DNA of 51,975 bases. Origin: Arenimonas sp. GTDB taxonomy: Bacteria > Pseudomonadota > Gammaproteobacteria > Xanthomonadales > Xanthomonadaceae. The notes beneath the pieces were generated by a model that was not told where the DNA came from, made no database searches, and worked only from the letters and a program-made list of their open reading frames with translations. Below are positions 20,138-39,249 of the stretch, one piece after another (positions within the stretch are counted from its first letter, which is position 1; every line of letters begins with the position of its first letter). The position numbers were made by a program, and so were the translations under genes. Where the stretch lies: positions 1 to 51,975 of the forward strand of contig JBMSNF010000001.1 of NCBI GenBank assembly GCA_049421545.1, written 5' to 3'.

Positions 20138-20142
20138 GACTA

Positions 20143-21869: not shown

Positions 21870-21930
21870 ACAAAGGACATTGACTCCCATGCAGCCATAC
21901 CCGACGTCGAATCCGTTTTTCAGGTTGCCC

Positions 21931-22731: not shown

Positions 22732-22797
22732 AGGACCTTGAATACGTAGGTTCGGTAAACCCGCTAAAGCGGGCCGCACCCAACGCATAACAGACAG

Positions 22798-22831
22798 GGA
22801 GGCCCCGATTTGCAAGCAAACCGGGGCCTCC
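22798..22831. terminator. GC-rich hairpin between convergent genes, probable terminator
   Basis: GGAGGCCCCG...CGGGGCCTCC inverted repeat with an inner TTTGC/GCAAA pairing; U-tract weak. Confidence 0.5.
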
Positions 22832-22835
22832 TGCA

Positions 22836-23588
22836 TCAGAACCGATAAGCAAGACCTAAGCGGATGACATCAGCATCAAAGTCTTGAGTGATGGTTTCAC
22901 CATAGCCGGGGAAAGTACTTCCGGGCACATACTCCAGATCGTAAGTGACATCTCCGCCATTGTAACGGAGATATTCCAGGCGACCACTCCAGTTTCCGCC
23001 GAAGCGGAATTCTAGGCCAGCCCCAAAAACGGTCTGGCTGAAACTCTTTGATGCGCCACCCAGTTTTGCATATCCGTTATCCAGACCTGTTTCAGTAAGC
23101 GCCGTAGCAAAATCAACATCCGTCCAGGCCCATCCGGCGGTAACGTAGGCCATAACTTGCTCTCCTGCATAACCGAAACGCGGGCGGATTGAATAACTGT
23201 CTCCGGCTTCAAATACCTGTCCGACGGTGTATTCAAGAGCGCTACTGGTACTTGCGACACTCTGGACATCTTCTCCATTGGCGCCGTGATCACCATATTC
23301 GGCTTCGATGCCGAGTACAAAACCATTGTCAAAATCATGGTCATAACCGGCGAAGAGTCCCCAGGACGTTCCACTGCCGTCGTATTCACCGGATAGGGCA
23401 TCCAGGACAGCCGTCTGGGTTGCCGCCGATTCACTGCTCCAGGAGCCGCTTAAAGCGGCCGACGACTGGGCATCCAAACTTCCCTGACCAACATTGACGC
23501 CGGCATACCAGCCTGTCCAAGAATCCGATGCCACTGCGCCACCTGCAGCTGCCAGCAGCGACCCGGTCAAAATAATGCGTTTCAACAT
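22836..23588 (-). CDS. Outer-membrane beta-barrel protein (Omp25/Omp31/RopB-like)
   Basis: GGGAG RBS; signal MLKRIILTGSLLAAAGGAVA; WTGWYAGVNVG, RPRFGYA, GAGLEF, C-terminal beta-signal GLAYRF. Confidence 0.85.
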   Translation of the reverse strand: MLKRIILTGSLLAAAGGAVASDSWTGWYAGVNVGQGSLDAQSSAALSGSWSSESAATQTAVLDALSGEYDGSGTSWGLFAGYDHDFDNGFVLGIEAEYGDHGANGEDVQSVASTSSALEYTVGQVFEAGDSYSIRPRFGYAGEQVMAYVTAGWAWTDVDFATALTETGLDNGYAKLGGASKSFSQTVFGAGLEFRFGGNWSGRLEYLRYNGGDVTYDLEYVPGSTFPGYGETITQDFDADVIRLGLAYRF

Positions 23589-23741
23589 ACACAAGCTCCC
23601 TAGTTTTTATTTGATGTGTCTGTCGCAGCACCGAAATGCGTCGACTGGTCAATACTAGCAATTTCCTGAATGATTGCAAACTGTCGCTTTTCCATTCAGA
23701 AATTAGTTAAAATTCATTCAAGCTCAGAATTGACTACCAGT

Positions 23742-23771
23742 ATTTTATATATATATATCAATGATTTACAA
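23742..23771 (-). promoter_or_regulatory. Putative sigma70 promoter of the OMP gene with a (TA)n tract in the spacer
   Basis: Minus strand TTGTAA-N18-TAAAAT in a very AT-rich stretch; (TA)6T at 23746-23758. Confidence 0.35.
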
Positions 23772-23878
23772 TAAATTACAATAATTTTAAACCCTGAACA
23801 AGAATAGGTACGACGTCCCCCCGGATTTGAGTAGCACGCTGATTTGGAGTCCAATATCCCAGATGAAGGAGATTGGAC

Positions 23879-24142
23879 ATGAAGAAGCGATTTACCGAAG
23901 AGCAGATTATTGGATTCCTGCGTGAAGCCGAGGCCGGCATACCGATAAAGGACCTATGCCGCCGTCATGGCTTTAGCGAAGCTTCGTACTACCTATGGCG
24001 GAGTAAGTTCGGCGGCATGAGCGTGCCGGATGCCAAGCGACTGAAGGATTTGGAAGCGGAGAATGCCCGCCTCAAGAAACTGCTGGCAGAACAGGTCTTC
24101 GAGAACGACCTGATCAAGGACGCCTTACGAAAAAAGTGGTGA
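23879..24142 (+). CDS. IS3 transposase OrfA (HTH)
   Basis: AAGGAG RBS; MKKRFTEEQII...LCRRHGFS..YYLWRSKFGGM...LEAENARLKKL. Confidence 0.93.
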   Translation: MKKRFTEEQIIGFLREAEAGIPIKDLCRRHGFSEASYYLWRSKFGGMSVPDAKRLKDLEAENARLKKLLAEQVFENDLIKDALRKKW

Positions 24143-24969
24143 CCGCGCCGGCAAGGCGAATGCTGGTGCGGCATCTTGCTGAGAAGGGGTTGAGTGAACG
24201 CCGGGCCTTGGCTGTGGCTGATATGAGCGCCAGCGCCTACCGCTACCAGCCCCGGCCGGACCGCAATGATGCGTTGCGCGAGCAGATCTTGGCGTTGGCG
24301 CATCGTCACAAGCGCTATGGCGTCGGGATGATTTACCTCAAGATTAGGCAGGCAGGAACGATGGTGAACTACAAGCGTGTTGAGCGGCTGTATCAGGAAG
24401 CGCAACTGCAGGTGCGGCGGCGCAAACGCAAGAAAGTACCGCTCGGAGAGCGTCAGCCCTTGCTTCGGCCCACAGCGGCCAATCAAGTTTGGTCGATGGA
24501 TTTCGTGTTTGACCGGACTGCCGATGGCCGTGTGCTCAAGTGCTTGACGATTGTGGACGATGCCACCCATGAAGCGGTTGCCATTGAAGTTGACCGTGCC
24601 ATCTCGGGACACGGCGTGGTGCGGGTTCTTGAGCGGCTAGCACTGAGCCGCGGCCTGCCTAGGGTAATCCGTACCGACAACGGCAAAGAATTTTGCGGCA
24701 AAACGATGTTGGAATGGGCCTTTGAGCGCGGTATTGCGTTACGGTTGATTGAACCCGGCAAACCGAACCAGAACGCCTACATCGAGAGCTTTAACGGTCG
24801 GCTGCGCGACGAATGTCTGAATGAACATTGGTTTCCGAACCTGCTACACGCACGTGCCGTCATCGAAACCTGGCGACGAGAATACAACGAGGATAGACCA
24901 AAGAAAGTGCTCGGTGGAATGACACCGGCAGCTTATGCGAAACAGCTAACCGCAGTTCCGTTACAATAA
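24136..24969 (+). CDS. IS3 transposase OrfB (DDE/rve), joined to OrfA by a -1 frameshift
   Basis: WSMDF, TDNGKEF, PGKPNQNAYIESFNGRLRDE; A-AAA-AAG slippery site at 24130-24136 in the correct phase. Confidence 0.93.
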   Translation: MVTAPARRMLVRHLAEKGLSERRALAVADMSASAYRYQPRPDRNDALREQILALAHRHKRYGVGMIYLKIRQAGTMVNYKRVERLYQEAQLQVRRRKRKKVPLGERQPLLRPTAANQVWSMDFVFDRTADGRVLKCLTIVDDATHEAVAIEVDRAISGHGVVRVLERLALSRGLPRVIRTDNGKEFCGKTMLEWAFERGIALRLIEPGKPNQNAYIESFNGRLRDECLNEHWFPNLLHARAVIETWRREYNEDRPKKVLGGMTPAAYAKQLTAVPLQ

Positions 24970-25014
24970 CCATGGACTCTAAACAGCTCTGCTACTGAAA
25001 CTGGGGGGACGTCG

Positions 25015-25680: not shown

Positions 25681-27417
25681 CTAACGCGGATCTTTTCCCA
25701 ACCGGCTGCGCTCCAGCCACCAGAGCAGACTGCTGGCCAGCAACCAGCCGATGAACCAGGGCCATGGCGAACCCGGAATCGGCGTGCCCGATGTGACGGT
25801 GTTTTCCGGCGATACCGTGGTTAACTTCAGGGTTTCCGTTTGCAGGCGGGCGCGCCGCAGTGCTTCACCCTCTTTCGGTGCGTGCACATAAAAGGGCAAC
25901 TGCATTTTGCCGCTCGTGAGTATGTGCCAACCTGCGGCTTGCGGCCAATAGGCGGCACAGCCTGCATTCATTCCCGTCGTTTCAACGACCAGCACCTGCC
26001 GGTCGGCCGCGGCCTGAACGGCGGCATCCGGCTGCAGATGGCAGAACACCATGCGTTCATGCGGCCATGCCGTATTGCCGCGCCGGGTCGGCGGATTTTC
26101 CGCCTGCGGCCGTACCAACACCGAAACCAGATCGCTCCAGATCCGGCTGTGGGCATCGCCGAAGCCGGCCAGAGCGAGCCGGTAGCTGTCCGAGAGCGGC
26201 AACACGCCGATACGTCCGCTGCCGTAAGAACGCCAGACCATCAAGGGCTCGCCCTGGGTGCCTGCCAATGCCACCACGCCGTCTGTGGTAGTGATGCGCA
26301 CCGGCCGGCGGCTCAATACAGGCCACTCCTGTTTTGCGGCATCCGGAGCCAACTGCACGCTCTCGACAAGATCTGCCGCATCGATACGCAGACCCATCTG
26401 GCGGAAATCCGCGGCCGTCTGCGCCGACAGCGGTCCGGTGATACGCAGCAACAGGCCGAGACCGTTGCCGACGGCCTCGCGGATGTTCCGGCGTTGACCG
26501 CCATCGAAACCCTGCCATGCGCGCTCGTCGATGATGAGCATGTCCTGCGCAGCCAAAGTGGCGGGGCGGACATCGGCGCCCTCCGTGCGCACCGTCATGC
26601 CCGGTCCGAGTTCGATGTGGCTCTGCAGTTGCAGACCCGCATCCAGCGCCCAACGCCGGATTGCCTTCAGATCCGGCCCCGGGCCACCGGAATGACTGAG
26701 CAGCTTCAGCGTCTGCGGCTGGCTGACCGCAACCGGAACCGTAAACGTTTCACGGATTTTTCCTGCCGCATCCAACACGCGCAGTTGGTAGCTCACCTGA
26801 CCAGAAGCCCGGGCGATATCGGAAAGCAGGGCGTCTCCATTGCGTTCCGGAATGGCACCATCCACCAGGATTCCGGACGGATCGCGTAATTCAACCCGCG
26901 CCTGGGTGATGCCGGAGAGGCGCAGACGCAACTGCCAGCGATTGCCGATGACAATGGTTTCCGGCATCCAGAAATCCACCAGACCCACAGGCGGGGCACC
27001 CGGCAGAAAGCGCAGGCTCCGGCCTGCCACGGCCTCCCGGTCACGGGCCGGCAAGCCATCACCGACGATCAGTAAATGTCCGACATCCGGTGATTGACGC
27101 AGCAGTGTCGCCACATCCGGCACGCGCGTCATCGTCATCAGCGCGGGCGCTTCCGGCAAGGCAATACGTCGGCCTTCGGGAATGGCAGTCACCGAATCGG
27201 CATGGGCGGTCAACACGATGCGCTCACCGGCGGGTACCCACTGGGTTGGTGGCAGCAGAGTGAAATAAAGCATCAGTGCGGAGATTCCACTGAGCACCAT
27301 CAAAACGATGATGCGCCAAGGCTTGACCGGATGGCGGCGGGCCGCACGCCAAAGCTGCACCACCGCAATGAGCACGGCAAGGGCAAGGAGACCCGCAATG
27401 ACATCCGATGGCATCAT
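25681..27417 (-). CDS. Membrane protein of the MoxR/BatA cluster (two N-terminal TM, one C-terminal TM)
   Basis: ATGA overlap with the upstream stop; hydrophobic N-terminus; C-terminal WFIGWLLASSLLWWLER anchor. Confidence 0.8.
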   Translation of the reverse strand: MMPSDVIAGLLALAVLIAVVQLWRAARRHPVKPWRIIVLMVLSGISALMLYFTLLPPTQWVPAGERIVLTAHADSVTAIPEGRRIALPEAPALMTMTRVPDVATLLRQSPDVGHLLIVGDGLPARDREAVAGRSLRFLPGAPPVGLVDFWMPETIVIGNRWQLRLRLSGITQARVELRDPSGILVDGAIPERNGDALLSDIARASGQVSYQLRVLDAAGKIRETFTVPVAVSQPQTLKLLSHSGGPGPDLKAIRRWALDAGLQLQSHIELGPGMTVRTEGADVRPATLAAQDMLIIDERAWQGFDGGQRRNIREAVGNGLGLLLRITGPLSAQTAADFRQMGLRIDAADLVESVQLAPDAAKQEWPVLSRRPVRITTTDGVVALAGTQGEPLMVWRSYGSGRIGVLPLSDSYRLALAGFGDAHSRIWSDLVSVLVRPQAENPPTRRGNTAWPHERMVFCHLQPDAAVQAAADRQVLVVETTGMNAGCAAYWPQAAGWHILTSGKMQLPFYVHAPKEGEALRRARLQTETLKLTTVSPENTVTSGTPIPGSPWPWFIGWLLASSLLWWLERSRLGKDPR

Positions 27418-29513
27418 GGCTGTCCCTCCAGGCGCAAGGCTTTCTGATAGGGGCTGTCCACGGGCTGCGGACGCCGCGCTTTCGGCACCGAGGGTGGCCT
27501 GGCCAATACCGGCCACAGCAGGGCCTTGACCGCATCACGGCAACTGCGGCAATCCGGTCGGCTTTCCATTTCGGCCAAAGCCACCTTCAGGCCCAGGGCA
27601 TCGGGCAAGCGATCGCCATGGTCAGCCATCCATCGCTGCAAGTCAGCGGTATCCGGCGAACCCGCCGCATCGAGGCTGCGCCAGAACAGCAACAGGGGCG
27701 CGTCCTCGCGTTCGGCGGCACGCAGCATGTCCGCAGGCGCCTTGAAACCGCTGCGGTCGCCGCTGAGCCGCCGGCTTTCATCGATCGGCGGCAGATCTGG
27801 ACCGACACGCGCGAGATAGATGCGCTCGGCCTGCTGCACTTTCTTGATGAATGCCAGCGCACGATACGCATAAGGCAGCGCCTTGGCCGGCTCGGCCTGA
27901 CGCAGATGCAGTTCGGCCTGCCACATTTCATTCAGCGCCGAACGCAGCAGGGATTTGGTTCCGGCATCAAGCAAGGTGGCCGCTTCCGGAATGTCGTGCG
28001 TGTGGCCGAATTCTTCGAGAATGCTCTGGTCGGAAGTGGTCGCCGACTTTGCAGGTGCTTTGCCGCTGTCGCCGCCGTGATCATGGCCATCGTCATCGCT
28101 ATGCTGGACGCCCTCAGCCGGCGGCTCCGGAGCTTCGGTTTCTTCACCGAGGAACTGGCCATAGCGCAAGCGCAGGATGCGTTGATCGACACCGATGGTG
28201 TCGGAACGGATTTCGAACTGTTCCCGGCTGATTTTCTTTCTCTCCGCCAACAGCTTTTCGGTGTCGATGATGATCTGGCGCTGGCTGCGGAAATAGGCCG
28301 GCATCACCTTCTTCAACATGCCCTCGACACCACTGGCTTCGTAGGCGTCTTCCGCCGACCAACGCAGGATATATGCGGCACTGACGGCGGTATTGGCCTG
28401 GGGCCGGCGCCGGTCGCTGACACGGAACTGCACGATCAGGTCATCACCGACCTGCATGCCGAGTGCGGCCAGATCCAGAACGGCACTGTAGCGCCGCCGC
28501 GTCGGCGAGCCCTGCCCGGACAAGGGCCGGCTGATGCTTTTGAATTGGATGTTTTCACCGCTGCCCTGCGCCAACTGGATGTCCATGACCGCATCGGCCA
28601 GACCGTAATCGTCTTCCGCTTCCATCTGCAGCGACCAGCTGCGTTGCCCGGAGCTCACCAGACTCAGGCTGCGGTCAGGCAGACTGACGCGCCATTGCGG
28701 GGCCCGGTCGGGAATGGCATCCAAGCGTTGCCAGGGGTTCGGCGATGTCTGGCCGGGAATGACGAAGCGATAGACATCGGATGCCGCGATGACGGTATCC
28801 ACCGTCCAGACGTCCCCGTCGCGCCGCAAAGGCAGAACGCTGCCATTGAAGAACTGCAAGTTCGCCTGCGTCGGCTGCGGCGCGAAACGCAGCCGCCAGA
28901 TGATCCGGCTGCCTTCCGGAAATTTCGCCGGCAGGCCGGTTTCGGTCCGTACCGGCAAACCGGTGTAAGACGGCGGCACAATCCGAAGCCGCGCATCGAC
29001 AAGTTTCACCGGAACCTTGGTGGCCGAAGCCGCCGCCGAAGTTGCTTTGGCGGTGCCGCCATCCTGCGATGGTGGCCGGAAATACGCGGTAGCGGCAAGC
29101 GCGGCAGACAGCAGCAGTGCAAGGGCAATGCCGACAGCGGGAAACGGCCGTCGCAGATCCTGCTCCGGCAACGATGCCAGCCGCTGCAGCACACGTTGCT
29201 GCTGCAGGGCAGCCAGACGCGGCTCCGGCGTCTGCGTGCTGAGCAGCAGATCGGCACTGTTTTCCAGGACCGGCAATGCGTCCAGACGCCGTATCAGCCA
29301 GCCCTTGTCCATGCGGCGCAGGCGCCGCCAAAGGACGTAAGCCAGGATTGCCGCTGATACCGCCAATAGCATGGCCGCATACACCGGACTGAAGAAGCGC
29401 CAGCAGACGGCAAACGCCGCTGCCATCACCGGCAGGCCTGCCGCGACGACAATGATGACCTCGCGTTGGCGGGCCTGATTGAGCCACCGCAGGGCGCGTG
29501 AGGGAATACTCAT
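27414..29513 (-). CDS. DUF4175-like membrane protein with His/Asp-rich segment
   Basis: 699 aa; three N-terminal TM; Ig-like PPSYTGLP and AEDDYGL; YFRSQRQIIIDTEKL; HSDDDGHDHG; GHTHD. Confidence 0.75.
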   Translation of the reverse strand: MSIPSRALRWLNQARQREVIIVVAAGLPVMAAAFAVCWRFFSPVYAAMLLAVSAAILAYVLWRRLRRMDKGWLIRRLDALPVLENSADLLLSTQTPEPRLAALQQQRVLQRLASLPEQDLRRPFPAVGIALALLLSAALAATAYFRPPSQDGGTAKATSAAASATKVPVKLVDARLRIVPPSYTGLPVRTETGLPAKFPEGSRIIWRLRFAPQPTQANLQFFNGSVLPLRRDGDVWTVDTVIAASDVYRFVIPGQTSPNPWQRLDAIPDRAPQWRVSLPDRSLSLVSSGQRSWSLQMEAEDDYGLADAVMDIQLAQGSGENIQFKSISRPLSGQGSPTRRRYSAVLDLAALGMQVGDDLIVQFRVSDRRRPQANTAVSAAYILRWSAEDAYEASGVEGMLKKVMPAYFRSQRQIIIDTEKLLAERKKISREQFEIRSDTIGVDQRILRLRYGQFLGEETEAPEPPAEGVQHSDDDGHDHGGDSGKAPAKSATTSDQSILEEFGHTHDIPEAATLLDAGTKSLLRSALNEMWQAELHLRQAEPAKALPYAYRALAFIKKVQQAERIYLARVGPDLPPIDESRRLSGDRSGFKAPADMLRAAEREDAPLLLFWRSLDAAGSPDTADLQRWMADHGDRLPDALGLKVALAEMESRPDCRSCRDAVKALLWPVLARPPSVPKARRPQPVDSPYQKALRLEGQP

Positions 29514-30664
29514 GCCGGCATTCCCCGGCTCGGTCGCGTGGCGACGATTCTCTCGACAAGAAACAACAGCACAACGGCGATCAGCAGCCAGGGCTGCAAG
29601 GGCTGCGGCTCCGGAATCGACGGTGAAGCGCCGATCCGCGGGCGCTGCGTTTGCGCCATTCCGGAATCCGGCGCAGGAACGGCTTCCAGCAGATTCCGCA
29701 AATGCTCCGGAAATCCGGAATCACGCAATTGCGGCACGCGCCGGCCATCCAAAGCTTGCTGCCATTGCAGTACGCGCCCGGAACCGATGGCGTGTTGCTT
29801 CACCAAGGCGTTGCCATCGTCCGCGCGCCAAAGCACCGACGCTGCCGGCGCATCGATGACGGCATCCGGGCCGAGCATGAGCGTGCCGCCTTTTCGCGAC
29901 CACGCAAGAACCGGCGCCGGTACCGGCCCGGCAGGCAGGTACACCCAAATCCGCACAGGCGCCGACGGCACGGCATCGCCGGCAAGCACCGGCAGTGTGC
30001 TTTGCCTGGTTTCAGGAAGGTGACTTTGCCAGACCCGGTAGGCGGCGCGGAAATAGCGCGCACTTTCGGCGTTCACCGGATCCGGCGTGATGGCCATGGC
30101 CGGCACCAGAACCGGAGGGGTGTGCGCCGGCATCTGCCCTTGCACGGTTCGCCACTGCACCGGCCGTTGCAGTTGCGGGCGTTCGGCATCCAATCCACGG
30201 ATGCGCTCGGGCACCAGTACCGTCAATTGCGTTGTTCCCGGCAATTTGGCATCCAGTTCGCGCAACAGACTCGCGACCGGGACCGCCACCGGCGGCAAGG
30301 GACGATCGGCTTCGGGAAAGCCCGGAGCCAGCCAATGCCGACTGACCGCATTTCCAGAGGGCAGCACTTCATCCGGCGGCCAGGCCACGCCGGGAACCGC
30401 GACCAGCCAGTGCGCAGGTGCCGGCGTATGCTGACGGACCGGAATGGCCAGAAACAGAACCACGGCCGTCAGCAGCAAGAGACGGATCAACAACAACAGC
30501 CACTCCTGCACGATCGGTTGGCGACGCGGGCGGAAGCGCGCCTGCAGCCAACGCAGTGCCGCGAAATCGGTCCGATGCTGCTGTGAACGCCGGCTCAGAT
30601 GAATCAGCAAGGGAAGCGCCAAGGCGAACAGAGCCAGCAGCGCGGAGGGCAACAGGAAATTCAT
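29510..30664 (-). CDS. BatA (aerotolerance N-terminal) domain membrane protein
   Basis: MNFLLP..LLAL..LALPLLIHL...F.ALRWL...LLLLIRLLLL; C-terminal TM ending LVER. Confidence 0.85.
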   Translation of the reverse strand: MNFLLPSALLALFALALPLLIHLSRRSQQHRTDFAALRWLQARFRPRRQPIVQEWLLLLIRLLLLTAVVLFLAIPVRQHTPAPAHWLVAVPGVAWPPDEVLPSGNAVSRHWLAPGFPEADRPLPPVAVPVASLLRELDAKLPGTTQLTVLVPERIRGLDAERPQLQRPVQWRTVQGQMPAHTPPVLVPAMAITPDPVNAESARYFRAAYRVWQSHLPETRQSTLPVLAGDAVPSAPVRIWVYLPAGPVPAPVLAWSRKGGTLMLGPDAVIDAPAASVLWRADDGNALVKQHAIGSGRVLQWQQALDGRRVPQLRDSGFPEHLRNLLEAVPAPDSGMAQTQRPRIGASPSIPEPQPLQPWLLIAVVLLFLVERIVATRPSRGMPA

Positions 30665-31566
30665 GCGCTTTCCTGGAAGTGCGCTTTGCCCTGCGCGAAC
30701 AGGCGCTGCAGGGGCGCATCGATATTTTCATCCAGTGCGTAAGACACATGGCGGATGCCGGCGGAGTTCAGACGCAGATTCAATTGCCGGAGTGCGGCGG
30801 CAAACGCCTGCAGATAATCATTGCGTGCGGCGCCGGCATCGGTCAGCAGCTCCGCACCGGATTCGACATCGATGAAGCGGCGGCCGTCACGGAACGGGAA
30901 GTCGCGCTCTTCGACGGTCAGGATCTGGATATTCAGCACCTCGCGCCGGGCGGCGGCAAGACGCTCGATCAGTCCCAACACCGCCTCATCGAAATCATCG
31001 CTGAGCAGCAGCACCAGATCATTGGCGTGGATGCGCTCCCAGATCAGTCGGCAATCGGCTTCGCCCGGCCAGGTGCCTGCGGCGTCTGCGGCAACCAGCA
31101 TCTTCAGACACTGATCCCGGTGGCGGGTGCCGCTGCCGGCATTGATCACCTGCAGGCGGTTGTTGCTGACGACTATCAGGCCGAAGCGATCGCCCTGACG
31201 GCAGGCCAGTTCGAACACGCAGGCGGCCTGCGCTTTCGCCGCCTGCAGACGGCTCCAGCCGGGTCGGGCGGCATCGGCCTGCGCCATCGATGCGGTCGCA
31301 TCGAGCAAGACCCAGGCCGCCAAGGGGCTGTCGCGCTCGGATTCGCGCACGAAGAATTTGTCGGAACGCGCGTACAGTTTCCAGTCGATCTGCCGCGGCT
31401 CGTCACCCGGTTCGTAAGCCCGGTACTGGGCGAACTCCATGCCTGCACCGCGCGAGCGGCTGTGGTGCTGTCCGATGCCGAGCGCACCCGACACGCGCCG
31501 CGAGACCAGACGCAGCCCTTTCAGGCGCGCCCGGACGTCGGCGGGAATCAGGTCGGGCCCGGACAT
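30661..31566 (-). CDS. DUF58 / vWA-like MoxR partner
   Basis: G.H.S...GAGMEFAQYRAYEPGD..R.IDWK..AR; MIDAS-like LDATASM; LLSD. Confidence 0.92.
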   Translation of the reverse strand: MSGPDLIPADVRARLKGLRLVSRRVSGALGIGQHHSRSRGAGMEFAQYRAYEPGDEPRQIDWKLYARSDKFFVRESERDSPLAAWVLLDATASMAQADAARPGWSRLQAAKAQAACVFELACRQGDRFGLIVVSNNRLQVINAGSGTRHRDQCLKMLVAADAAGTWPGEADCRLIWERIHANDLVLLLSDDFDEAVLGLIERLAAARREVLNIQILTVEERDFPFRDGRRFIDVESGAELLTDAGAARNDYLQAFAAALRQLNLRLNSAGIRHVSYALDENIDAPLQRLFAQGKAHFQESA

Positions 31567-31577
31567 CGCGTTAGGGC

Positions 31578-32564
<987 letters not shown>

Positions 32565-32596
32565 GACGGCAGGGTCCGTGAGTGGGTTCTGGTGAA

Positions 32597-33292
32597 TCAG
32601 GCGTTGAGGGCGTACATCACGATGTTGACGGCGAACTTGGTGTTGTCTTCGGCGAGGAAACGCTTGTTGCGCCAGTCGTAATCCCATTCGCAGCCGTAGT
32701 CCTTGTTGCTGTAGAGCAGTCCGAGACGGCCGTCGAAGCTGATGCCTTTCAGGTAATCGTGCACGATGTCATCGCCCCAGCCGTTCAGCTCGAAACTGGT
32801 GGTCGGCGGCTCGCTGAAACGGAAAAAACTGGAGTACAGCGGATGGGAGTTGGGGATTTTGCCCAAAGCCTTCGGTCCGAAGATGGAGGCCATCTGGGCT
32901 TCGAAGGATTTGGCGAACAGGCCGTCGATGTCGTGGTTGCAGTCGTCCACGAAGATGAAGCCGCCGCTGCGCAGATAGGCCTCGAAATTCCGGCGCTCGG
33001 CCGGACTGAACTGCACCAGCTTGTGGCCGGCCAGGTAACAGAACGGGGCCAGCCGCATTTTCGGATCCGACAGGGCGATGACATGTTCTTTCGGGTCGAC
33101 CCGCAGGCTGGTGTAATCGATCAGCGCGGTGATCACATTGGACGGCATGCGCGCATCCACATCCCAATCCCCGGACTCGTACATCAGCCGGGTAAAGCGG
33201 AAATCGTATTCGGGGCCTGCGGCGGCCATGCGCGGCAGCGCGGCCATGGCCGCACCGCCGAGCATCAAACGCAGGAAGTCGGCACGGTCCAT
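32597..33292 (-). CDS. DUF4159 domain protein with Tat-like signal
   Basis: MDRADFLRLMLGGAAMAALPRMAAA; RL.Y.SGDW, PF.Y..GH, YL..GGF.FVDDC, H.LY..FF, DYGCEW, NI.MYAL. Confidence 0.85.
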   Translation of the reverse strand: MDRADFLRLMLGGAAMAALPRMAAAGPEYDFRFTRLMYESGDWDVDARMPSNVITALIDYTSLRVDPKEHVIALSDPKMRLAPFCYLAGHKLVQFSPAERRNFEAYLRSGGFIFVDDCNHDIDGLFAKSFEAQMASIFGPKALGKIPNSHPLYSSFFRFSEPPTTSFELNGWGDDIVHDYLKGISFDGRLGLLYSNKDYGCEWDYDWRNKRFLAEDNTKFAVNIVMYALNA

Positions 33293-33308
33293 GCCGGCTC
33301 CCGGGGCA

Positions 33309-34643
33309 TCACACGGCGTCCGACAGCGACGTGAAGGTGAAGTCGCGGATCTTCATCGGCGGAATCATCATCACGAACGGCGATTCGTCATCGCCGAGGC
33401 GGATCGGCTTGCCGAGCTCTTCGATGTTGTTGAGCATGATCACCGGCGACTCGTTGAAACGGAAATTTTTGATCGGATATTTAATCTCGCCATTCTCGAT
33501 GTAGAAGGTGCCGTCGCGGGTCAGGCCGGTCAGCAGCACGGTCTGCGGGTCGACCATGCGGATGTACCAGGTGCGGGTGACCAGAATGCCTTTCGCGGTG
33601 CCCTTGACCAGATCCATGGTGGACTTGGTGCCGCCGGCCATGATCAGATTGCCGGGCGAGCCCTTGGCCTCCTTGCCCTTGAGCTTGGCCCAGTAGCGCG
33701 AATATTCGAGATAGGACACCTTGCCCTTGTCGATGATGGTCATCTTTTCGCGCGGCAGACCTTCGCCGTCCCAGGGCATCACCGGCACATCCGGATTCCA
33801 GGGATCGGTGTGCAGGCTCACGCGCGGATCGAACACCTGCTCGCCGAGCTTGTTGCCGCCGCCTTTCTTGGTCAGGAAGCTGCGGCCTTCATCGGCCTGG
33901 CGGGCATCGAAGCCGTTCATCATGAAGGAAATCAGGCCGGCCGAAGCCGCCGGTTCCAGAATGACGGTGTACTTGCCCGGCTCGAGCGCCTTGGCGCCGC
34001 GTGAGCCTTTGGCTTTCTGGATGGCGGTCTGGATTTCACGCGAGGCTTTGAAGTCCTCGACGCTGCCGGCATTGCGGGCGACCCAGCCGGAGCCGGTGCC
34101 GTCTTCGGTGCGCACGGTGCAGGTGTAATCCAGCCCGGTGGATTGCTGGTAGGCGAAGTTGCCGTTGCTGTTGGCCGATGCGAAGAAGCCGACGCTGTCG
34201 GACAGGAAGCCGGCGGCGATCAGTCCGTCGCTCTTGCAGGGATTGATGGAATCGGCGGCGACCTGAGCGCGGTATTCCGGGGTGATGGCGGCGATGCCGG
34301 CATTGAAGGTCGGCGTGGGCTTGTAGCTCTGCTTGCCGATGGCCGGAACGAATTCCTCGTTCTCGGGCGCCAGACGTGCCAGTTCCTCGGCGCGGCGGAC
34401 CACGCGTGCCAGCGATTCATCATCGAACTCGTTGATGGTGGCGACGCCGACGCGCTTGCCGAAGGCGACCTGCACGGCCAGTTCGGCATTAGTGACGATG
34501 CCGCTGGTGGACACGTTGTTCAGCGCGAAGCGGATGTTGCCGTTGATGCCGCCGCCGAGGGTGGCGGTGCACTCATCGGCCTTGCTCAGCGCGATGACCT
34601 TGTCGAGGATCGCTTTGGCCTGTTGTTCCGTATACATGCTCAT
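33309..34643 (-). CDS. TldE/PmbA-like non-catalytic subunit
   Basis: 444 aa TldD/PmbA fold (IRFA.N, LEPGKYTVILEP.A, DGEG, TG.TRDG.F.IENG); no HExxxH; no signal peptide. Confidence 0.88.
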   Translation of the reverse strand: MSMYTEQQAKAILDKVIALSKADECTATLGGGINGNIRFALNNVSTSGIVTNAELAVQVAFGKRVGVATINEFDDESLARVVRRAEELARLAPENEEFVPAIGKQSYKPTPTFNAGIAAITPEYRAQVAADSINPCKSDGLIAAGFLSDSVGFFASANSNGNFAYQQSTGLDYTCTVRTEDGTGSGWVARNAGSVEDFKASREIQTAIQKAKGSRGAKALEPGKYTVILEPAASAGLISFMMNGFDARQADEGRSFLTKKGGGNKLGEQVFDPRVSLHTDPWNPDVPVMPWDGEGLPREKMTIIDKGKVSYLEYSRYWAKLKGKEAKGSPGNLIMAGGTKSTMDLVKGTAKGILVTRTWYIRMVDPQTVLLTGLTRDGTFYIENGEIKYPIKNFRFNESPVIMLNNIEELGKPIRLGDDESPFVMMIPPMKIRDFTFTSLSDAV

Positions 34644-34670
34644 GGATGCTTGCTCCTGTAGTGAGGTCGG

Positions 34671-36296
34671 TTAGCCCAGGGACCGGGCCGTGCTGATGAC
34701 GTTGATGCCGTCGAAGCGCGCGGTACTGGAACCGTGCGAGACCGCGGAAACCTGGCCGGGCTGGCCCTTGCCGTCGAAGAACGAGCCGCCGAAACGGTAA
34801 TCGCGTTCGTCGCAGATGGCCGAGCAGGCGCTCCAGAATTCCGGCGTGCGGATCTGGTAGGCGACGTCTTCGACCATGCCCTTTATTTTGCCGTTTTCGA
34901 TTTCATAGAACAGCTGGCCGCCGAACTGCGCGTTGTAACGCTGCTGGTCGATCGAGAACGAGCCGTCACCGATGATGTAGATGCCTTTTTCGACATTCTT
35001 GATCATGTCCGCCACCGACAGCGGCGATTTGCCCGGTTCAAGCGAAACGTTGGCCATGCGCTGGAACTGCACGCTCGACCAGGAGTCGGCGTAACAGCAG
35101 CCATGCGATTCGGCTTCACCGATGATGTGGGCCTGATCGCGGATGGCCTGGTAATTGACCAGGGTGCCGTCCTTGACCAGATCCCAGCGCTTGGTCTTGA
35201 CGCCTTCATCGTCGTAACCGACGGCGCCGAGCGTGTTCGGCTGGACCTTGTCGGCGAACAGGGTGACCCTGTCGCTGCCGTACTTGAATTTGTCCTTCAG
35301 TTTGTCGATGGTGGCGAAGCTGGTACCGGCATAGTTGGCTTCATAACCGAGGACGCGGTCGAGTTCGAGCGGATGTCCGACGTTTTCGTGGATGGTCAGC
35401 CACAGATGGGAGGGATCGAGCACCAGATCGTACTTGCCGGGCTTGACCGAGGGCGCTTTCAGTTTCAGCTGGGCCTGCTTGGCGGCGGCAATGGCGTCTT
35501 CCTTCATGTCGTAACGGTCCTTGTAGGCGGTCAGCCCGTTCGGCAGCGCGATGCTGCGGCCGCCGTCGAGGTATTCGTAGCCCATGCCCATCGGCGAAGA
35601 CAGGCTGTCGCGGCTGCGGAATTTGCCGGTGGCCTTGTCGATGGCGGTGACCGTGAAGGTCGGCCAGATCCGGTGCACGTCCTGGTCGATGTAGGAACCG
35701 TCGGTGGACGCGAAATATTTCTGCTCGTTGACCAGGAACAGCATGGAGTTGACGAAATTGGCGCCGGCGGCCATGGCCGCACTGTTGGCGGAAAGCAGCA
35801 GATCGACCTTGTCCTTGACCGGCACTTCCATCGCGTTTTTCTTGATCGGCGTGGCCCAGGACACTTCACCGACGCCCTTGACCGGCGCCAGCTGTACCGG
35901 CTTGGTCTGTGACTTGGCGTTGGCTTTGGCAATGGCGACCGCCTGTTGGGCGGCCTTGGCGATGGCGGCATTGCTGAGGTCGCTGGTGGCGGCGAAGCCC
36001 CAGGTGCCGTTGGCGATGACGCGGATGCCGGCACCGATGGACTCGGTGTTGACCACGTTCTGCACCTTGTTTTCGCGGGTGATCACGAACTGGCGCATAT
36101 AGCGGCCGATGCGGACGTCGCAGTAGCTGGCGCCGGCGGCGGTGGCCGCACCGAGCGCGATGTCGGCCAGCACTTTCTTGCGGGCCGGATCCATTTTGGT
36201 CAGCAAGGCTTCGGCCGCCACGGCGTTGCCGAAGCCCGGAATCATGAAGCCGCTCAGGCCGATGCCCGATGCCGCCAAGAAATGTCGTCTATCCAT
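34671..36296 (-). CDS. tldD: TldD family metalloprotease with Tat signal (paralogue B)
   Basis: AGGAG RBS; MDRRHFLAASG...AVAA; HENVGH; YDDEG; QRMAN; FFDGKGQP. Confidence 0.9.
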   Translation of the reverse strand: MDRRHFLAASGIGLSGFMIPGFGNAVAAEALLTKMDPARKKVLADIALGAATAAGASYCDVRIGRYMRQFVITRENKVQNVVNTESIGAGIRVIANGTWGFAATSDLSNAAIAKAAQQAVAIAKANAKSQTKPVQLAPVKGVGEVSWATPIKKNAMEVPVKDKVDLLLSANSAAMAAGANFVNSMLFLVNEQKYFASTDGSYIDQDVHRIWPTFTVTAIDKATGKFRSRDSLSSPMGMGYEYLDGGRSIALPNGLTAYKDRYDMKEDAIAAAKQAQLKLKAPSVKPGKYDLVLDPSHLWLTIHENVGHPLELDRVLGYEANYAGTSFATIDKLKDKFKYGSDRVTLFADKVQPNTLGAVGYDDEGVKTKRWDLVKDGTLVNYQAIRDQAHIIGEAESHGCCYADSWSSVQFQRMANVSLEPGKSPLSVADMIKNVEKGIYIIGDGSFSIDQQRYNAQFGGQLFYEIENGKIKGMVEDVAYQIRTPEFWSACSAICDERDYRFGGSFFDGKGQPGQVSAVSHGSSTARFDGINVISTARSLG

Positions 36297-36410
36297 CGCA
36301 GTGCTCCTGGGTTGATGAGGGGGTCGCGCCACCGGCCGGCGGCAGGCGAACCCCCATCATAGTGAAGGCCTTCCGGCATTGGCATAGCCCATTAGTCATG
36401 GCGACAGGGC

Positions 36411-38039
36411 TCATCCGAGCGAACGGGCGGTATTGATGATGTTGATGCCGTCGAAACGGGTGGTGGCCGCGCCATGGGAAACCGCCGACACCTGGGACGG
36501 CTGGCCTTTGCCGTCGAAGAAGGAACCGCCGTGGCGGAAATCGCTTTCATCGCAGATGGCGGTGCAGGCGTTCCAGAACTCCGGGGTCCGGATCTGATAA
36601 GCCACGTCTTCGATCATGCCGGTGATCTTGCCGTTTTCGATTTCATAGAACAGCTGGCCGCCGAACTGGGCGTTGTAACGCTGCTGGTCGATCGAGAACG
36701 AACCGCGGCCGAGGATATAGATGCCCTTTTCGACATTCTTGATCATGTCTGCGGGCTTCAGGGGCTTTTTACCCGGAGATAGCGAAACGTTCGCCATGCG
36801 CTGGAATTGCACGTCCGCCCAGCTCTGCGCATAACAGCAGCCCTGCGATTCGGTTTCGCCGATGATGTGGGCCTGATCGCGGATAGCCTGGTAATTGACC
36901 AGAATGCCGTCCTTGACCAGATCCCATTGCTTGGTCTTGACCCCTTCGTCGTCGTAACCGACGGCACCGAGGGTTCCGGGCACGGTCTTGTCGGCGAACA
37001 GGGTGACGATGTCGCTGCCGTAACGGAAACCCTGCTCGCGCTTGTCGAGGGTGGCGAAACTGGTGCCAGCGAAATTGGCTTCGTAGCCCAGCACACGGTC
37101 GAGCTCCAGCGGATGTCCGACGTTTTCATGGATGGTCAGGAACAGATTGCTCGGATCGAGCACCAGATCGTACTTGCCGGGCTTGACCGAGGGCGCCTTG
37201 AGTTTCATTACCGCGTGCTTGGCCGCCTGCACGGCGTCCTCGAGCATGTCATAGCGATCTTTGTAAGCCGTCAATCCATTGGGCAGCGAGATGCTCCGGC
37301 CGCCCTCCAGGTACTCGTAGCCCATGCCCATCGGCGATGACAATGCGTTGCGGCTGCGGAACTTGCCGCTGGCCTTGTCGATGGCGGTGACATTGAAATT
37401 CGGCCAGATCCGGTGCACATCCTGGTCGATGTAGGAACCGTCGGTGGAGGCGAAATATTTCTGTTCGTTGACGATGAACAGTTGGGAATTGATGAAATTG
37501 GCGCCGGCCGCCATCGCAGCGGCATTCACGCCGAGCAGCAGTTCGACCTTGTCCTTGACCGGCACGGCCATGGCGTTGCGGCCGATCGGCGTGGCCCAGG
37601 ACACCTGTCCGACACCCTTGACCGGCGCCAGACGCACCGGCTCGGTCTGCGCCACGCTGTTGGCGCGCGCAATGGCGACCGCCTGACGGGCGGCGCGAGC
37701 GATGCCGTCGTTGCTGAGATCGCTGCTGGCGGCGAAGCCCCAGGTGCCGTTGACGATGACACGGATGCCGGCGCCGGTGGATTCGCTGTTGAGGACGCTT
37801 TGGACGCGTTTTTCACGGGTGGTGATGGACTGCCGGAGATAGCGGCCGATGCGGACATCGCAGTAGCTGGCGCCGGCGCCGGTGGCGGCAGCGAGCGCGA
37901 TGTCGGCCAGTACTTTCTTGCGCGCCGGATCCATCGTTTCCAGAAGGGCTTCTGCGGCCACGGCACGCCCGAAACCGGGAATCATCAGGCCGCCGAGCGA
38001 TGCGCCCGAGGCTGCCAGAAAATCACGTCTATCCATCAT
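36411..38039 (-). CDS. tldD: TldD family metalloprotease with Tat signal (paralogue A)
   Basis: GGAG RBS; MMDRRDFLAASG...AVAA; HENVGH; YDDEG; FFDGKGQP. The longer track ORF overlaps the upstream gene and was trimmed. Confidence 0.9.
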   Translation of the reverse strand: MMDRRDFLAASGASLGGLMIPGFGRAVAAEALLETMDPARKKVLADIALAAATGAGASYCDVRIGRYLRQSITTREKRVQSVLNSESTGAGIRVIVNGTWGFAASSDLSNDGIARAARQAVAIARANSVAQTEPVRLAPVKGVGQVSWATPIGRNAMAVPVKDKVELLLGVNAAAMAAGANFINSQLFIVNEQKYFASTDGSYIDQDVHRIWPNFNVTAIDKASGKFRSRNALSSPMGMGYEYLEGGRSISLPNGLTAYKDRYDMLEDAVQAAKHAVMKLKAPSVKPGKYDLVLDPSNLFLTIHENVGHPLELDRVLGYEANFAGTSFATLDKREQGFRYGSDIVTLFADKTVPGTLGAVGYDDEGVKTKQWDLVKDGILVNYQAIRDQAHIIGETESQGCCYAQSWADVQFQRMANVSLSPGKKPLKPADMIKNVEKGIYILGRGSFSIDQQRYNAQFGGQLFYEIENGKITGMIEDVAYQIRTPEFWNACTAICDESDFRHGGSFFDGKGQPSQVSAVSHGAATTRFDGINIINTARSLG

Positions 38040-38106: not shown

Positions 38107-39240
38107 TTACAAATCGCGCTCGTTGAGGATGTCCGAAATCGGTGAGCCCGCCATGCGCGCCAGCTCCTCGAGCGACTTCGGCTCCTCGTCGACCAGGCTG
38201 CTCTGGATGCCTTCGAGCTGGTCGAAGATGCGTTCGAACACATGCACCAGCTCAGGGTCGAAATGGCTGCCCGAGCGCTCGCGGAAAAACGCGAGGGTTT
38301 CTTCGGCGGACCAGGCGGTTTTGTAGGGGCGCGCCGAACGCAGCGCGTCGTAGACATCGCAGATGGCGGCAATGCGGCCCGACAGCGGGATGTCTTCGCC
38401 TTTCAGGCCCTGCGGGTAGCCTTGTCCATCCCAGTGTTCATGATGAAAAAGCGCAATTTCGGCCGCGAGCTGGGTCAACGGCGTCGCCTTGCTGTCATTC
38501 AGGATGTGATAGCCGATGCGGGCGTGATGCTGCATGATTTCACGCTGTTCCGGTGTGAACGGCCCTGACTTCTTCAGGATTTCCTCCGGAATGCCGATTT
38601 TGCCGATGTCATGCATCGGCATGGCCAGCCGCATGTTTTCGCATTGCTCTTCGGTCAGACCGATGGCGCGCGCGATCAGTGCCGCGTATTCACCGATACG
38701 CATGACATGCCGTTCGGTTTCATTCTCACGGTATCCGGCAGCCCGGGAGAGCATGCCGATGATGCTCTGGTAGCTGTCACGCAGCTGGGCGGTGCGCGCA
38801 AACACGGCCTGATCGAGCTGGTCGCGTTCGGTGCGCAGGGACTGGGTGGCCACGCTCAATGCGAGGCTGTTGCGGACGCGCAACAGCAGCTCGGGCAGGT
38901 CAAGCGGCTTGCAGATGTAATCATTGGCACCGAGCGACAGTCCCTTGCGGCGGTCTTCCGGGCGGCTCAGGGCGCTGACAACGATGATCGGCGAAGCGCT
39001 GCGGTCGCGGTCCTCGAGCGCTTTCAGGATATCGAAACCGTTGGGTGCCGGCATGTCCAGATCAAGCACCAGAAGATCCCAAGCCATGCCCTGCAACCAA
39101 TCCAGCGCCGCCGCCGAATCGCTGAATGCCCGCACATTGCGCAGGCCGAATGCCTTCATGCTGGATTCCAGCAGCCTGAGATTGGCCGGCGTATCGTCGA
39201 CGAGCACGACGGCTGCATTTTTGACATTTTCGGGCAACAT
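38107..39240 (-). CDS. Response regulator with HD-GYP c-di-GMP phosphodiesterase domain (RpfG-like)
   Basis: REC (VDD...LDLDMP...KP), then ET..H..R, MHDIGK, HHEHWDGQGYP, DVYDAL...RPYK. Confidence 0.93.
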   Translation of the reverse strand: MLPENVKNAAVVLVDDTPANLRLLESSMKAFGLRNVRAFSDSAAALDWLQGMAWDLLVLDLDMPAPNGFDILKALEDRDRSASPIIVVSALSRPEDRRKGLSLGANDYICKPLDLPELLLRVRNSLALSVATQSLRTERDQLDQAVFARTAQLRDSYQSIIGMLSRAAGYRENETERHVMRIGEYAALIARAIGLTEEQCENMRLAMPMHDIGKIGIPEEILKKSGPFTPEQREIMQHHARIGYHILNDSKATPLTQLAAEIALFHHEHWDGQGYPQGLKGEDIPLSGRIAAICDVYDALRSARPYKTAWSAEETLAFFRERSGSHFDPELVHVFERIFDQLEGIQSSLVDEEPKSLEELARMAGSPISDILNERDL

Positions 39241-39249
39241 CGGTTTTCC

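Follow-up and report, generated by a model that had tools for sequence, protein, structure and literature searches.

Operon structure

The window, i.e. the whole 51,975-nt stretch of Arenimonas sp. DNA that was analysed, contains a run of nine ORFs at positions 25681-38039, all on the minus strand (Table 1). In gene order they are separated by gaps of 114, 27, 16, 32 and 11 nt, and at the last three junctions the genes share ATGA overlaps. Nine co-oriented genes with such gaps and overlaps had been claimed in an earlier, sequence-only reading of the region, and the ORF coordinates bear this out. That reading treated all nine genes as one unit. The order and co-orientation stand, but the core unit comprises eight gene families, not nine, since the second tldD is optional. 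The two tldD paralogues are 82% identical, and paralogue 1 is the optional copy. The GC3 values are 0.71-0.85 across the nine genes. Pfam matches were obtained for PmbA_TldD (three genes), DUF4159, AAA_3, DUF58 and BatA, whereas genes 8 and 9 had no significant match in the Pfam search.

Table 1. Genes of the Arenimonas sp. operon, with positions in the window.
Gene	Product	Positions	Strand	Features
tldD1	TldD paralogue 1 (542 aa)	36411-38039	-	twin-Arg leader; HENVGH; Asp at the Cys-ligand position
tldD2	TldD paralogue 2 (541 aa)	34671-36296	-	twin-Arg leader; H303/E304/H308/D508
tldE	TldE/PmbA (444 aa)	33309-34643	-	lacks HExxxH and a leader; predicted to hitch-hike with TldD
	stand-alone DUF4159 protein (231 aa)	32597-33292	-	single-Arg Tat-like leader; GATase-like fold; candidate adaptor
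moxR	MoxR AAA+ ATPase	31578-32564	-	AAA_3 plus lid; Walker A/B; no signal
	DUF58 protein	30661-31566	-	weak vWA match; MIDAS-like residues; predicted cytoplasmic MoxR adaptor
batA-N	BatA-N/two_anch membrane protein (384 aa)	29510-30664	-	an N-terminal pair of hydrophobic helices and a single C-terminal one
gene 8	DUF4175-like membrane protein (699 aa)	27414-29513	-	three predicted TM helices
gene 9	membrane protein (578 aa)	25681-27417	-	TM-TM, GATase-like domain, C-terminal helix

Contigs from RNA libraries of close relatives bridge at least five of the eight junctions (tldD1-tldD2, tldD2-tldE, tldE-DUF4159, moxR-DUF58 and DUF58-batA); such contigs show neither the strand nor a single transcript, and thus this evidence is weak. 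The promoter and terminator scan produced chance-level counts only (2 vs 3.0 and 10 vs 10.4). The flanks contain no widely shared ORF of at least 140 aa, and no conserved transporter or substrate gene of that size. The commonest neighbour family was observed in 21 loci among L011-L095 and L115-L191, those listed belonging to Stenotrophomonas, Xanthomonas and Pseudoxanthomonas. When the locus was considered as a RiPP-type system, the gaps of at most 114 nt were found to leave no room within the operon for a precursor or modifying-enzyme gene, and the flanks offered no widely shared candidate above the same size limit.

The operon was found in genomes of Xanthomonadales and Sphingomonadales, and in Massilia-like, Colwellia-like and Bacteroidota-like genomes. 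The host genome is 1.91 Mb (95.5% complete), and retention of the operon in a genome of this size suggests that it earns its 12 kb.

TldD and TldE

Domains 1-3 of PmbA_TldD are present in both TldD and TldE, all above the Pfam cut-off. The motif HENVGH occurs in both TldDs, and TldE contains no HExxxH. Residues H303, E304, H308 and D508 of TldD are invariant in 76/76 aligned sequences. Asp508 stands where four sister-clade proteins and the canonical TldD of the same genome retain Cys; the latter belongs to a separate leaderless Cys-type TldD/E pair on contig C17. In E. coli TldD the corresponding Cys454 is the third metal ligand, and its replacement by Asp is known in Gemmatimonas, with no link to export drawn in the accessible part of that report (PMC5810440).

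In the FastTree phylogeny, where the outgroup branches are long, the Tat-type TldDs form one clade that keeps HExxGH. Their scores against the NCBIfam TldD/PmbA equivalogs are 78-84 bits, the cut-off being 513. The operon TldD thus has neither the Cys ligand nor the equivalog score of the canonical E. coli type, and given its RR leader it is predicted not to share the cytoplasmic location of that type. Judging from these sequence features, Tat-type TldD is a separate subfamily and not an orthologue of E. coli TldD. For the tldD row in PMC8745565, no assignment to the present operon was possible.

Leader sequences

Signals and topology were judged by motifs, hydropathy and the positive-inside rule rather than by SignalP or TMHMM. 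Both TldDs start with D-R-R-x-F-L, followed by an uncharged stretch and AVA-A. This confirms the twin-arginine signals assigned to them in the sequence-only reading, and together with the tatC gene present in the host genome gives the full set of features expected of a Tat substrate. R3, R4, F6 and A27-A28 are invariant in 76/76 aligned TldDs, while the stretch between them varies, and RR or RK/KR occurs in 178 of 181 TldD N-termini. Tat export of TldD is therefore well supported at the sequence level.

Inspection of motifs and hydropathy revealed neither a leader nor a hydrophobic segment in TldE, MoxR or DUF58, so that the latter two are indeed signal-less, as had been proposed. The DUF4159 protein had been assigned a Tat-like signal. 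Its leader, D-R-A-D-F-L, is Tat-like, but has one Arg only and falls short of a twin-arginine motif; it is a single-Arg leader in 68 of 98 loci and absent in 11, and so is degenerate or lost in many lineages. At one Myxococcaceae-like locus (L126) the RR leader is on DUF4159 and TldD has none. The distribution of DUF4159 leaders, including this swap, is new here. The Asp-type TldDs of L126 and L134 both have no leader. None of the 98 loci is without a leader on both TldD and DUF4159, which suggests that TldD, TldE and DUF4159 may be exported together.

DUF4159 protein

The DUF4159 protein has a predicted GATase-like fold: its model matches PDB 4I66 with Z 21.7 and 1KXJ with Z 10.2 (rmsd 3.2, 145 aligned). 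It contains three invariant motifs, DDCNHD, GW..[ND].[VI]H and D[YL]GCEW. Their Cys, His and Asp residues are invariant in all 126 TldD-linked sequences scoring at least 250 bits, whereas DUF4159 domains fused to BatA and 4I66 do not have these motifs. In a check for the GATase Cys-His-Glu triad, C118, H120, H178 and C201 were invariant.

MoxR, DUF58 and the membrane proteins

MoxR retains intact Walker A (GVPGLGKT) and Walker B (LLLADE) motifs and its gene adjoins that of DUF58, as in MoxR/vWA pairs. DUF58 contains the MIDAS-like D89-x-T-x-S93 and D190, with D89, S93 and D190 conserved in at least 90%. Compared with the full MIDAS (DxSxS-T-D), Thr replaces the first Ser in the Arenimonas protein, the Thr ligand was not located, and the VWA_2 match is below the cut-off.

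Hydrophobic segments are present in the products of the last three genes, in line with their proposed membrane anchoring. The middle part of BatA-N is predicted to be periplasmic. The name DUF4175 for gene 8 derives from atlas look-alikes (score 0.98), DUF4175 being assigned to 10-17% of cluster members; the Arenimonas protein has no match to PF13779 (DUF4175), and its homologues P0280 and P0291 exceed the Pfam cut-off. It has a small predicted cytoplasmic domain, where residue 84 is acidic in 106/107 sequences, a conserved SQRQIIIDxE region and a CxxC motif. The predicted periplasmic segment 458-507 is rich in His and acidic residues and ends in GHxHD. His makes up 10% of this segment vs 0.8% elsewhere, and H504 and H506 are invariant in 107/107. 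Acidic His-rich linkers also exist without a metal role. No sequence relative of gene 8 was found in PDB.

The model of gene 9 contains two TM helices, a small alpha/beta domain, a beta-sandwich, a GATase-like domain (235-437), a beta domain with C459/C487 and a C-terminal helix (552-570). Residues 235-437 align with 2GK3 (Z 17.0, rmsd 3.0, 186 aligned), supporting the GATase-like fold; this domain has no Cys. Paralogy of BatA and gene 9 was considered but is not claimed, since comparing their profiles gave a weak match (probability 27 over 60 columns).

Linkage and co-occurrence

Three genome draws were surveyed: 301 Pseudomonadota, 121 genomes of the order of Arenimonas and 101 of a second order. 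Tat-type TldD, stand-alone DUF4159 and a strong gene 8 match occur in the same 6 of the 301 genomes. In the order of Arenimonas TldD was found in 35 genomes and gene 8 in 33, all of them within the TldD set; in the two TldD-only genomes tldD lies at a contig end, and 30 of the 33 pairs share one contig. The same seven of the 101 genomes hold Tat-TldD and an adjacent stand-alone DUF4159. In these counts related genomes are not independent observations. Within the three draws the TldD-associated module subtype never occurs without Tat-TldD. When loci were anchored on DUF4159, 68 of 80 held all eight families, and the other 12 were cut by contig ends. The predicted linkage of Tat-TldD with DUF4159 or gene 8, and their co-occurrence, thus hold in all three draws.

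The two halves do not always stand together. In L137, L168 and L190 they are rearranged, the module being upstream. Among 45 informative metagenome loci with Asp-motif TldD, ten show no nearby module gene; five of these (L119, L127, L147, L149, L152) have sequence on both sides. Conversely, of the 72 genomes in the 301-genome draw that have DUF4159, 66 carry a related module with fused BatA-DUF4159, and in all 15 alphaproteobacterial loci fetched the roughly 10 kb to each side contained no TldD. These loci are probably operons of the Rhizobium RL3499-RL3502 type. Such a module reportedly (Vanderlinde, in 2011) affects envelope integrity. With no TldD nearby, a module of this sort has work that does not depend on TldD. 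Alphaproteobacteria that keep the module without a nearby TldD and Tat-TldD/E pairs without a nearby module both argue against an obligate machine.

Expression data exist for the very likely same operon of Stenotrophomonas maltophilia 454, NIPOLPBK_01784-01792, whose genes 01784, 01786, 01790 and 01792 drop jointly in biofilm (log2 -2.1 to -2.4; PMC7688217). The tldD/E and moxR halves fall together there, contrary to separate regulation. The proposed coupling of the ATPase module to TldDE is upheld at the genetic level by the linkage and this co-regulation, and Tat export has good sequence support; a physical or mechanical coupling is putative, and is weakened by the existence of each half without the other nearby.

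Possible function

We tentatively favour, by analogy, a maturation machine of the MxaRSACKL/NorQD kind for a Tat-exported periplasmic TldD/E metallopeptidase. What the sequences and genomes themselves show is that the genes are linked and co-occur, together with the catalytic motifs, the Cys-to-Asp ligand change, the leaders, the predicted folds and the His-rich segment. TldD and TldE would be exported folded by Tat, likely with DUF4159, and the MoxR-DUF58 motor would act via the three inner-membrane proteins, its most likely job being to load TldD/E with metal or re-activate it in the periplasm. TldD and leaderless TldE may form a pair while still in the cytoplasm and be carried across by Tat together with DUF4159. 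DUF4159 would then bring the protease to the membrane proteins by docking it on their periplasmic GATase-like domains. Through its MIDAS, DUF58 may grip a membrane subunit at an acidic residue on the cytoplasmic side, residue 84 of gene 8 being a candidate, and MoxR would pull. This movement would open the closed TldD/E shell, metal from the His-rich segment of gene 8 would enter, and active TldD/E would trim unfolded peptides in the periplasm. Against metal loading in the periplasm, Tat usually carries enzymes that are loaded before export. Recombinant E. coli TldD binds Zn or Fe at about one metal per monomer, and since its apoenzyme can be reconstituted by metal addition (both from PMC5810440), a dedicated metal loader is not obviously needed.

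A trans-envelope machine for ATP-energised proteolysis is possible but doubtful. In it, force from MoxR-DUF58 would reach TldD-TldE-DUF4159 by way of the three membrane proteins and serve to open this complex, load it with metal or feed it; the complex would be co-exported by Tat on whichever subunit has the leader. If true, this would be a periplasmic counterpart of the AAA+ proteases and give the DUF4159/BatA/DUF4175 modules their first defined client.

It is unlikely that the membrane trio, powered by MoxR-DUF58, unfolds imported peptides or proteins of the envelope, or presents them, for the narrow channel of periplasmic TldD/E, which would bring ATP-energised proteolysis to a compartment that has no ATP. 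The linkage speaks for this reading as much as for maturation, and the envelope effect reported for the TldD-free module fits general envelope remodelling. Passage of only unfolded N-termini through the narrow TldD/E pore (PMC5810440) also agrees with feeding. However, Tat-TldD/E pairs occur without a nearby module, the flanks offer no conserved transporter or substrate gene of at least 140 aa, and the MoxR/vWA pairs in the accessible part of PMC9976466 remodel a dedicated client and translocate no substrate. It is quite improbable that MoxR-DUF58 is a cytoplasmic chaperone folding or assembling TldD-TldE, possibly with DUF4159, before Tat, the membrane proteins only tethering the motor or the exported enzyme. 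A single-leader heterodimer must assemble before export, MoxR and DUF58 are signal-less, and M. tuberculosis MoxR1 is reportedly needed for Tat export of RipA (PMC4810496). This would leave unexplained why three membrane proteins, each with large domains predicted to be periplasmic, are conserved together and why gene 8 has invariant predicted-periplasmic motifs, and canonical TldD/E assembles without MoxR (PMC5810440).

A shared regulon, in which the module has its own envelope job as in Rhizobium and the peptidase is either an accessory transcribed along with it or an enzyme that processes one of its subunits, is distinctly unlikely. The separate existence and the rearrangement of the halves are consistent with it, as is homology of gene 9 to the GATase1_like gene of the TldD-free alphaproteobacterial operon (hhalign probability 84.9, E 6e-6). 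Against such uncoupled roles are the restriction of this module subtype to genomes with Tat-TldD, the invariant motifs of TldD-linked DUF4159 and the leader pattern tying DUF4159 to TldD/E. That the RR leaders are unused for export, with TldD/E-DUF4159 acting in the cytoplasm or at the inner membrane face, is extremely improbable: the loss or reduction of the DUF4159 leader and the leaderless TldDs of L126 and L134 point this way, but the TldD leader positions are invariant around a variable stretch and the genome already holds a leaderless Cys-type TldD/E.

Comparison with known systems

Envelope modules of the MoxR-DUF58-BatA kind occur widely and produce envelope phenotypes, and the literature found names no clients for them. 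In the present subtype the operon itself encodes an enzyme that can be assayed, which makes module function testable by a peptidase assay with metal measurement; the operon also defines a predicted periplasmic subfamily of TldD/E. In a literature search whose coverage mostly excluded subscription journals, no functional study of this operon and no paper joining DUF4159 with TldD were found, and the match listed for TldD with twin-arginine was unrelated by title.

Like E. coli TldD/TldE (PDB 5NJ5), the operon has adjacent tldD and tldE, three PmbA_TldD domains per subunit and HExxxH in TldD only; it differs by the twin-Arg leader, Asp for Cys454 and the adjoining MoxR module. The alphaproteobacterial operon shares MoxR, DUF58, BatA-N, DUF4159 and the GATase1_like membrane protein. 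There DUF4159 has no Cys/His motifs and forms one chain with BatA, in frames of about 800-1200 aa, whereas BatA-N and DUF4159 are separate genes in Arenimonas; it is also predicted to be periplasmic, as it follows a second hydrophobic, signal-like segment. Neither TldD/E nor a gene 8 match was found in the 20 kb fetched. The S. maltophilia operon likewise comprises nine genes, of which 01784-01786 cover TldD/PmbA, 01788 is MoxR and 01790 encodes a membrane protein; the accessible part of PMC7688217 calls it not yet characterised and down in biofilm, and discusses no export, fold or mechanism.

NorQ/NorD, also a MoxR with a MIDAS adaptor and predicted cytoplasmic, inserts Fe by acting on surface carboxylates of a TM helix (PMC9976466), and the present model takes from it the idea that the motor works on a membrane protein through acidic residues. 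Its client is itself a membrane enzyme, with no scaffold trio or exported protease. In methanol dehydrogenase maturation, MxaR, S, A, C, K and L are each required for Ca2+ loading of the periplasmic enzyme (PMC12276312). The client there is a PQQ/Ca2+ dehydrogenase, no homology of the membrane subunits is claimed, and the function is demonstrated there and predicted here; common to both systems is a MoxR ATPase with vWA-type partners beside a periplasmic metalloenzyme with an enclosed site.

Operon layout and genomic surroundings

The operon is real and conserved, and literature searches found no functional description of it. All nine ORFs proposed in the sequence-only reading, with gaps of 114, 27, 16, 32 and 11 nt and three ATGA overlaps, were borne out when the sequence was re-read. 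Two TldD, TldE, DUF4159, MoxR, DUF58 and BatA-N are recognised by Pfam; genes 8 and 9, which follow batA-N, have no significant Pfam match. The window DUF4159 is 97% identical to copies in named Arenimonas MAGs. The host genome (1.91 Mb, completeness 95.5%) carries on another contig, C17, apart from the operon, a second TldD/TldE pair of the Cys type, without leaders. A partial additional MoxR match lies elsewhere in the same genome. The kinase and response regulator genes upstream of tldD1 are absent from the commonest flanking families of other loci. The lower-GC stretch is probably acquired DNA.

Features of the window, and of two other sequences, mentioned in the text
Feature	Sequence	Position	Strand	Remarks
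Hybrid histidine kinase (Cache-like, PAS, HisKA, receiver) and HD-GYP-type response regulator	window	38107-42138	-	directly upstream, 67 nt from tldD1
Lower-GC stretch	window	20000-25000		GC 0.54-0.585 vs about 0.63; just past operon 3' end
IS3-like transposase	window	24136-24969		within lower-GC stretch
OmpA-like beta-barrel	window	22836-23594		within lower-GC stretch
GDSL lipase	window			within lower-GC stretch
Prephenate-dehydrogenase-like/ACT protein	window			within lower-GC stretch
MoxR match, partial	host genome (G000), contig C41	12890-13360
Leaderless Asp-type TldD, Myxococcaceae-like, and neighbouring DUF4159	locus L126	367-1071 and 2412-3884	-

Linkage of the protease and the module

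All eight families occur in order at 68 of the 80 best DUF4159-anchored loci from named genomes, and the remaining 12 stop at a contig edge. Such loci come from the closest relatives (Xanthomonadales, Sphingomonadales), so independent anchors were brought in. When 301 Pseudomonadota genomes were drawn evenly, three markers, Tat-type TldD (at 67% identity or above), a strong match to gene 8 and stand-alone DUF4159, picked out an identical set of six genomes that includes the window's own; the operon was present in each of the five other loci once fetched. Of 121 genomes in the window's order, 35 have TldD; gene 8 is in 33, every one of which belongs to those 35. In the two TldD-only genomes tldD abuts the end of a contig; 30 of the 33 pairs share a contig. 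Another order (101 genomes) yielded seven genomes with Tat-type TldD and an adjacent stand-alone DUF4159, 12 with only the fused type, where DUF4159 is joined to BatA in one chain, and none with both. These counts are given without a statistic, because kin genomes are not independent. The proposed linkage of tldD/E with the module (DUF4159 and the MoxR to gene 9 side) holds in all three draws, apart from the two contig-end cases. A nine-gene operon of S. maltophilia is described in a transcriptome paper as so far uncharacterised; four looked-up genes of it, from both halves, are reported down 2.1-2.4 log2 units in biofilm in isolate 454 (PMC7688217).

The linkage has limits. DUF4159 lies inside a long frame in 66 of the 72 DUF4159-positive genomes of the 301-genome draw, and all 15 long-frame loci fetched contain a BatA-type fusion adjoining moxR and DUF58, with no TldD in the 20 kb fetched. 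Scanning metagenomes for the Asp motif brought up 77 loci with flanking sequence, 45 of them informative after removal of one duplicate, two non-TldD and 29 too short. At least one module gene was found in 35 and none in ten, under a definition of presence that favours positives; five of the 35 (L124, L137, L154, L183, L190) show no more than one or two, and these are weak or partial. The module is upstream of TldD in L137, L168 and L190, and five of the ten negatives lack upstream sequence. Cluster relatives place the loci in Bacteroidota, Gemmatimonadaceae, Myxococcaceae, Colwellia and Massilia (a taxon came from five of ten look-ups).

A second tldD is not always present: the orders D-E, D-D-E, D-E-D and D-E-D-E were all found. 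In the FastTree tree both window copies pair within an Arenimonas clade; the Stenotrophomonas and Lysobacter second copies fall outside it. Alphaproteobacterial copies (L019, L037, L050, L052, L093) are nested among Xanthomonadales sequences in the TldD tree, a hint of horizontal operon transfer. One record labelled Bacillus subtilis (L027) contains a typical Stenotrophomonas-like copy; the assembly is probably mislabelled.

The TldD/TldE protease

Zn or Fe is held in E. coli TldD by His262, His267 and Cys454 (PMC5810440). Both window TldD retain HENVGH, and H303, E304, H308 and D508 do not vary across 76 aligned sequences picked via DUF4159. D508 lies within a DGK motif; the corresponding motif is CGK in the canonical TldD of the genome and in four proteins of the sister clade. 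The Asp forms make up one clade (support 98) in a tree whose metagenome rows had been selected on Asp. Replacement of the Cys ligand by Asp in Gemmatimonas was remarked on by the authors of the E. coli study (PMC5810440). An Asp ligand would fit an oxidising compartment, but there are two Asp-type TldDs without a leader, in the Myxococcaceae-like loci L126 and L134. In a cluster of 46 members, the leaderless Asp-type protein measures 491 aa for most of those listed.

TldD N-termini are twin-arginine in 172 of 181 cases and RK or KR in six. TldE begins right at its domain, without a leader, so that its export would be bound to TldD as in known Tat hitch-hiking, TldE being the passenger. Some copies in multi-copy TldD loci (L137, L160, L131, L168, L190, L119) have GAFNDGK or GAFGDGK beside the metal ligand, not GSFFDGK, which suggests differing substrate preference.

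DUF4159

The predicted model of DUF4159 (pLDDT 82) matches PDB 4I66 (Z 21.7, rmsd 2.5, 185 aligned); its similarity to class I GATases is weaker (Z up to 10.2). The motifs DDCNHD, GW..[ND].[VI]H and D[YL]GCEW are common to all 126 stand-alone proteins scoring 250 bits or more, and were not found in fused-type DUF4159 or 4I66. Leader classes were assigned by a regular-expression rule at 98 loci with both N-termini. Next to a TldD with a leader, DUF4159 is single-Arg in 68, twin-arginine in 17 and leaderless in 12 by the rule, or in 11 truly, L024 being a twin-arginine case misfiled through a long linker. Leaderless TldD adjoins a DUF4159 with a full twin-arginine leader at one locus, L126; at none are both leaderless. 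In the fused type (alphaproteobacterial loci L096-L110) the chain ahead of the domain comprises a helix, then a basic loop, then a signal-like segment whose end resembles an AxA-Q site; a periplasmic location is therefore predicted there too, and cleavage may set the domain free in the periplasm. The simplest reading is that DUF4159 would be one of the parts on the module's periplasmic face, travelling with TldD/E in the stand-alone subtype, with a swap of leaders in one locus.

MoxR, DUF58 and the membrane proteins

Walker motifs are present in MoxR; in DUF58 the MIDAS motif is partial. The gene following the alphaproteobacterial BatA-DUF4159 fusion is a homologue of gene 9, whose model (pLDDT 94) has a Cys-free GATase-like domain at 235-437, which resembles 2GK3 (Z 17.0), IFT52-N (Z 14.9) and OST48 (Z 12.7 at rmsd 11). 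The gene 8 family numbers 876 representatives at E values of up to 1e-30; a sequence search of the PDB found no solved-structure relative. Its SQRQIIIDxE region is invariant. His makes up 10.2% of its His/acid-rich segment vs 0.8% elsewhere in 107 sequences, and 12.2% vs 1.2% in a set of 21 that includes distant members. H504 and H506 are both present in 107/107 sequences of the first set and 20/21 of the second, and residue 84, in a small predicted cytoplasmic domain, is acidic in 106/107 and 20/21.

Possible mechanisms

The module might feed substrate to TldD/E, which we regard as a lesser possibility; entry into the E. coli enzyme is limited to unfolded N-termini (PMC5810440). It is rather unlikely that the halves share an operon and are otherwise uncoupled. 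Chaperoning by the MoxR side before export of TldD/E has a reported precedent in MoxR1-RipA (PMC4810496), and we consider it improbable here; the large domains of genes 7-9 are predicted to be periplasmic from hydropathy, helices of the gene 9 model and basic loops. That TldD/E are not exported at all, as the leaderless copies might suggest, is very improbable; tatC is present in the host genome.

The best-supported reading, by analogy and at somewhat less than even probability, is that the module serves the maturation of TldD/E, which would be a closed-shell metalloprotease on the periplasmic side, with the His-rich arm of gene 8 taking part. Ca2+ loading of periplasmic methanol dehydrogenase is described as requiring each of MxaR, S, A, C, K and L (PMC12276312), and NorQ/NorD are proposed to grip carboxylates on the surface of a TM helix and so open a metal site (PMC9976466). 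Not a new kind in itself, the operon joins two known kinds in a new combination.
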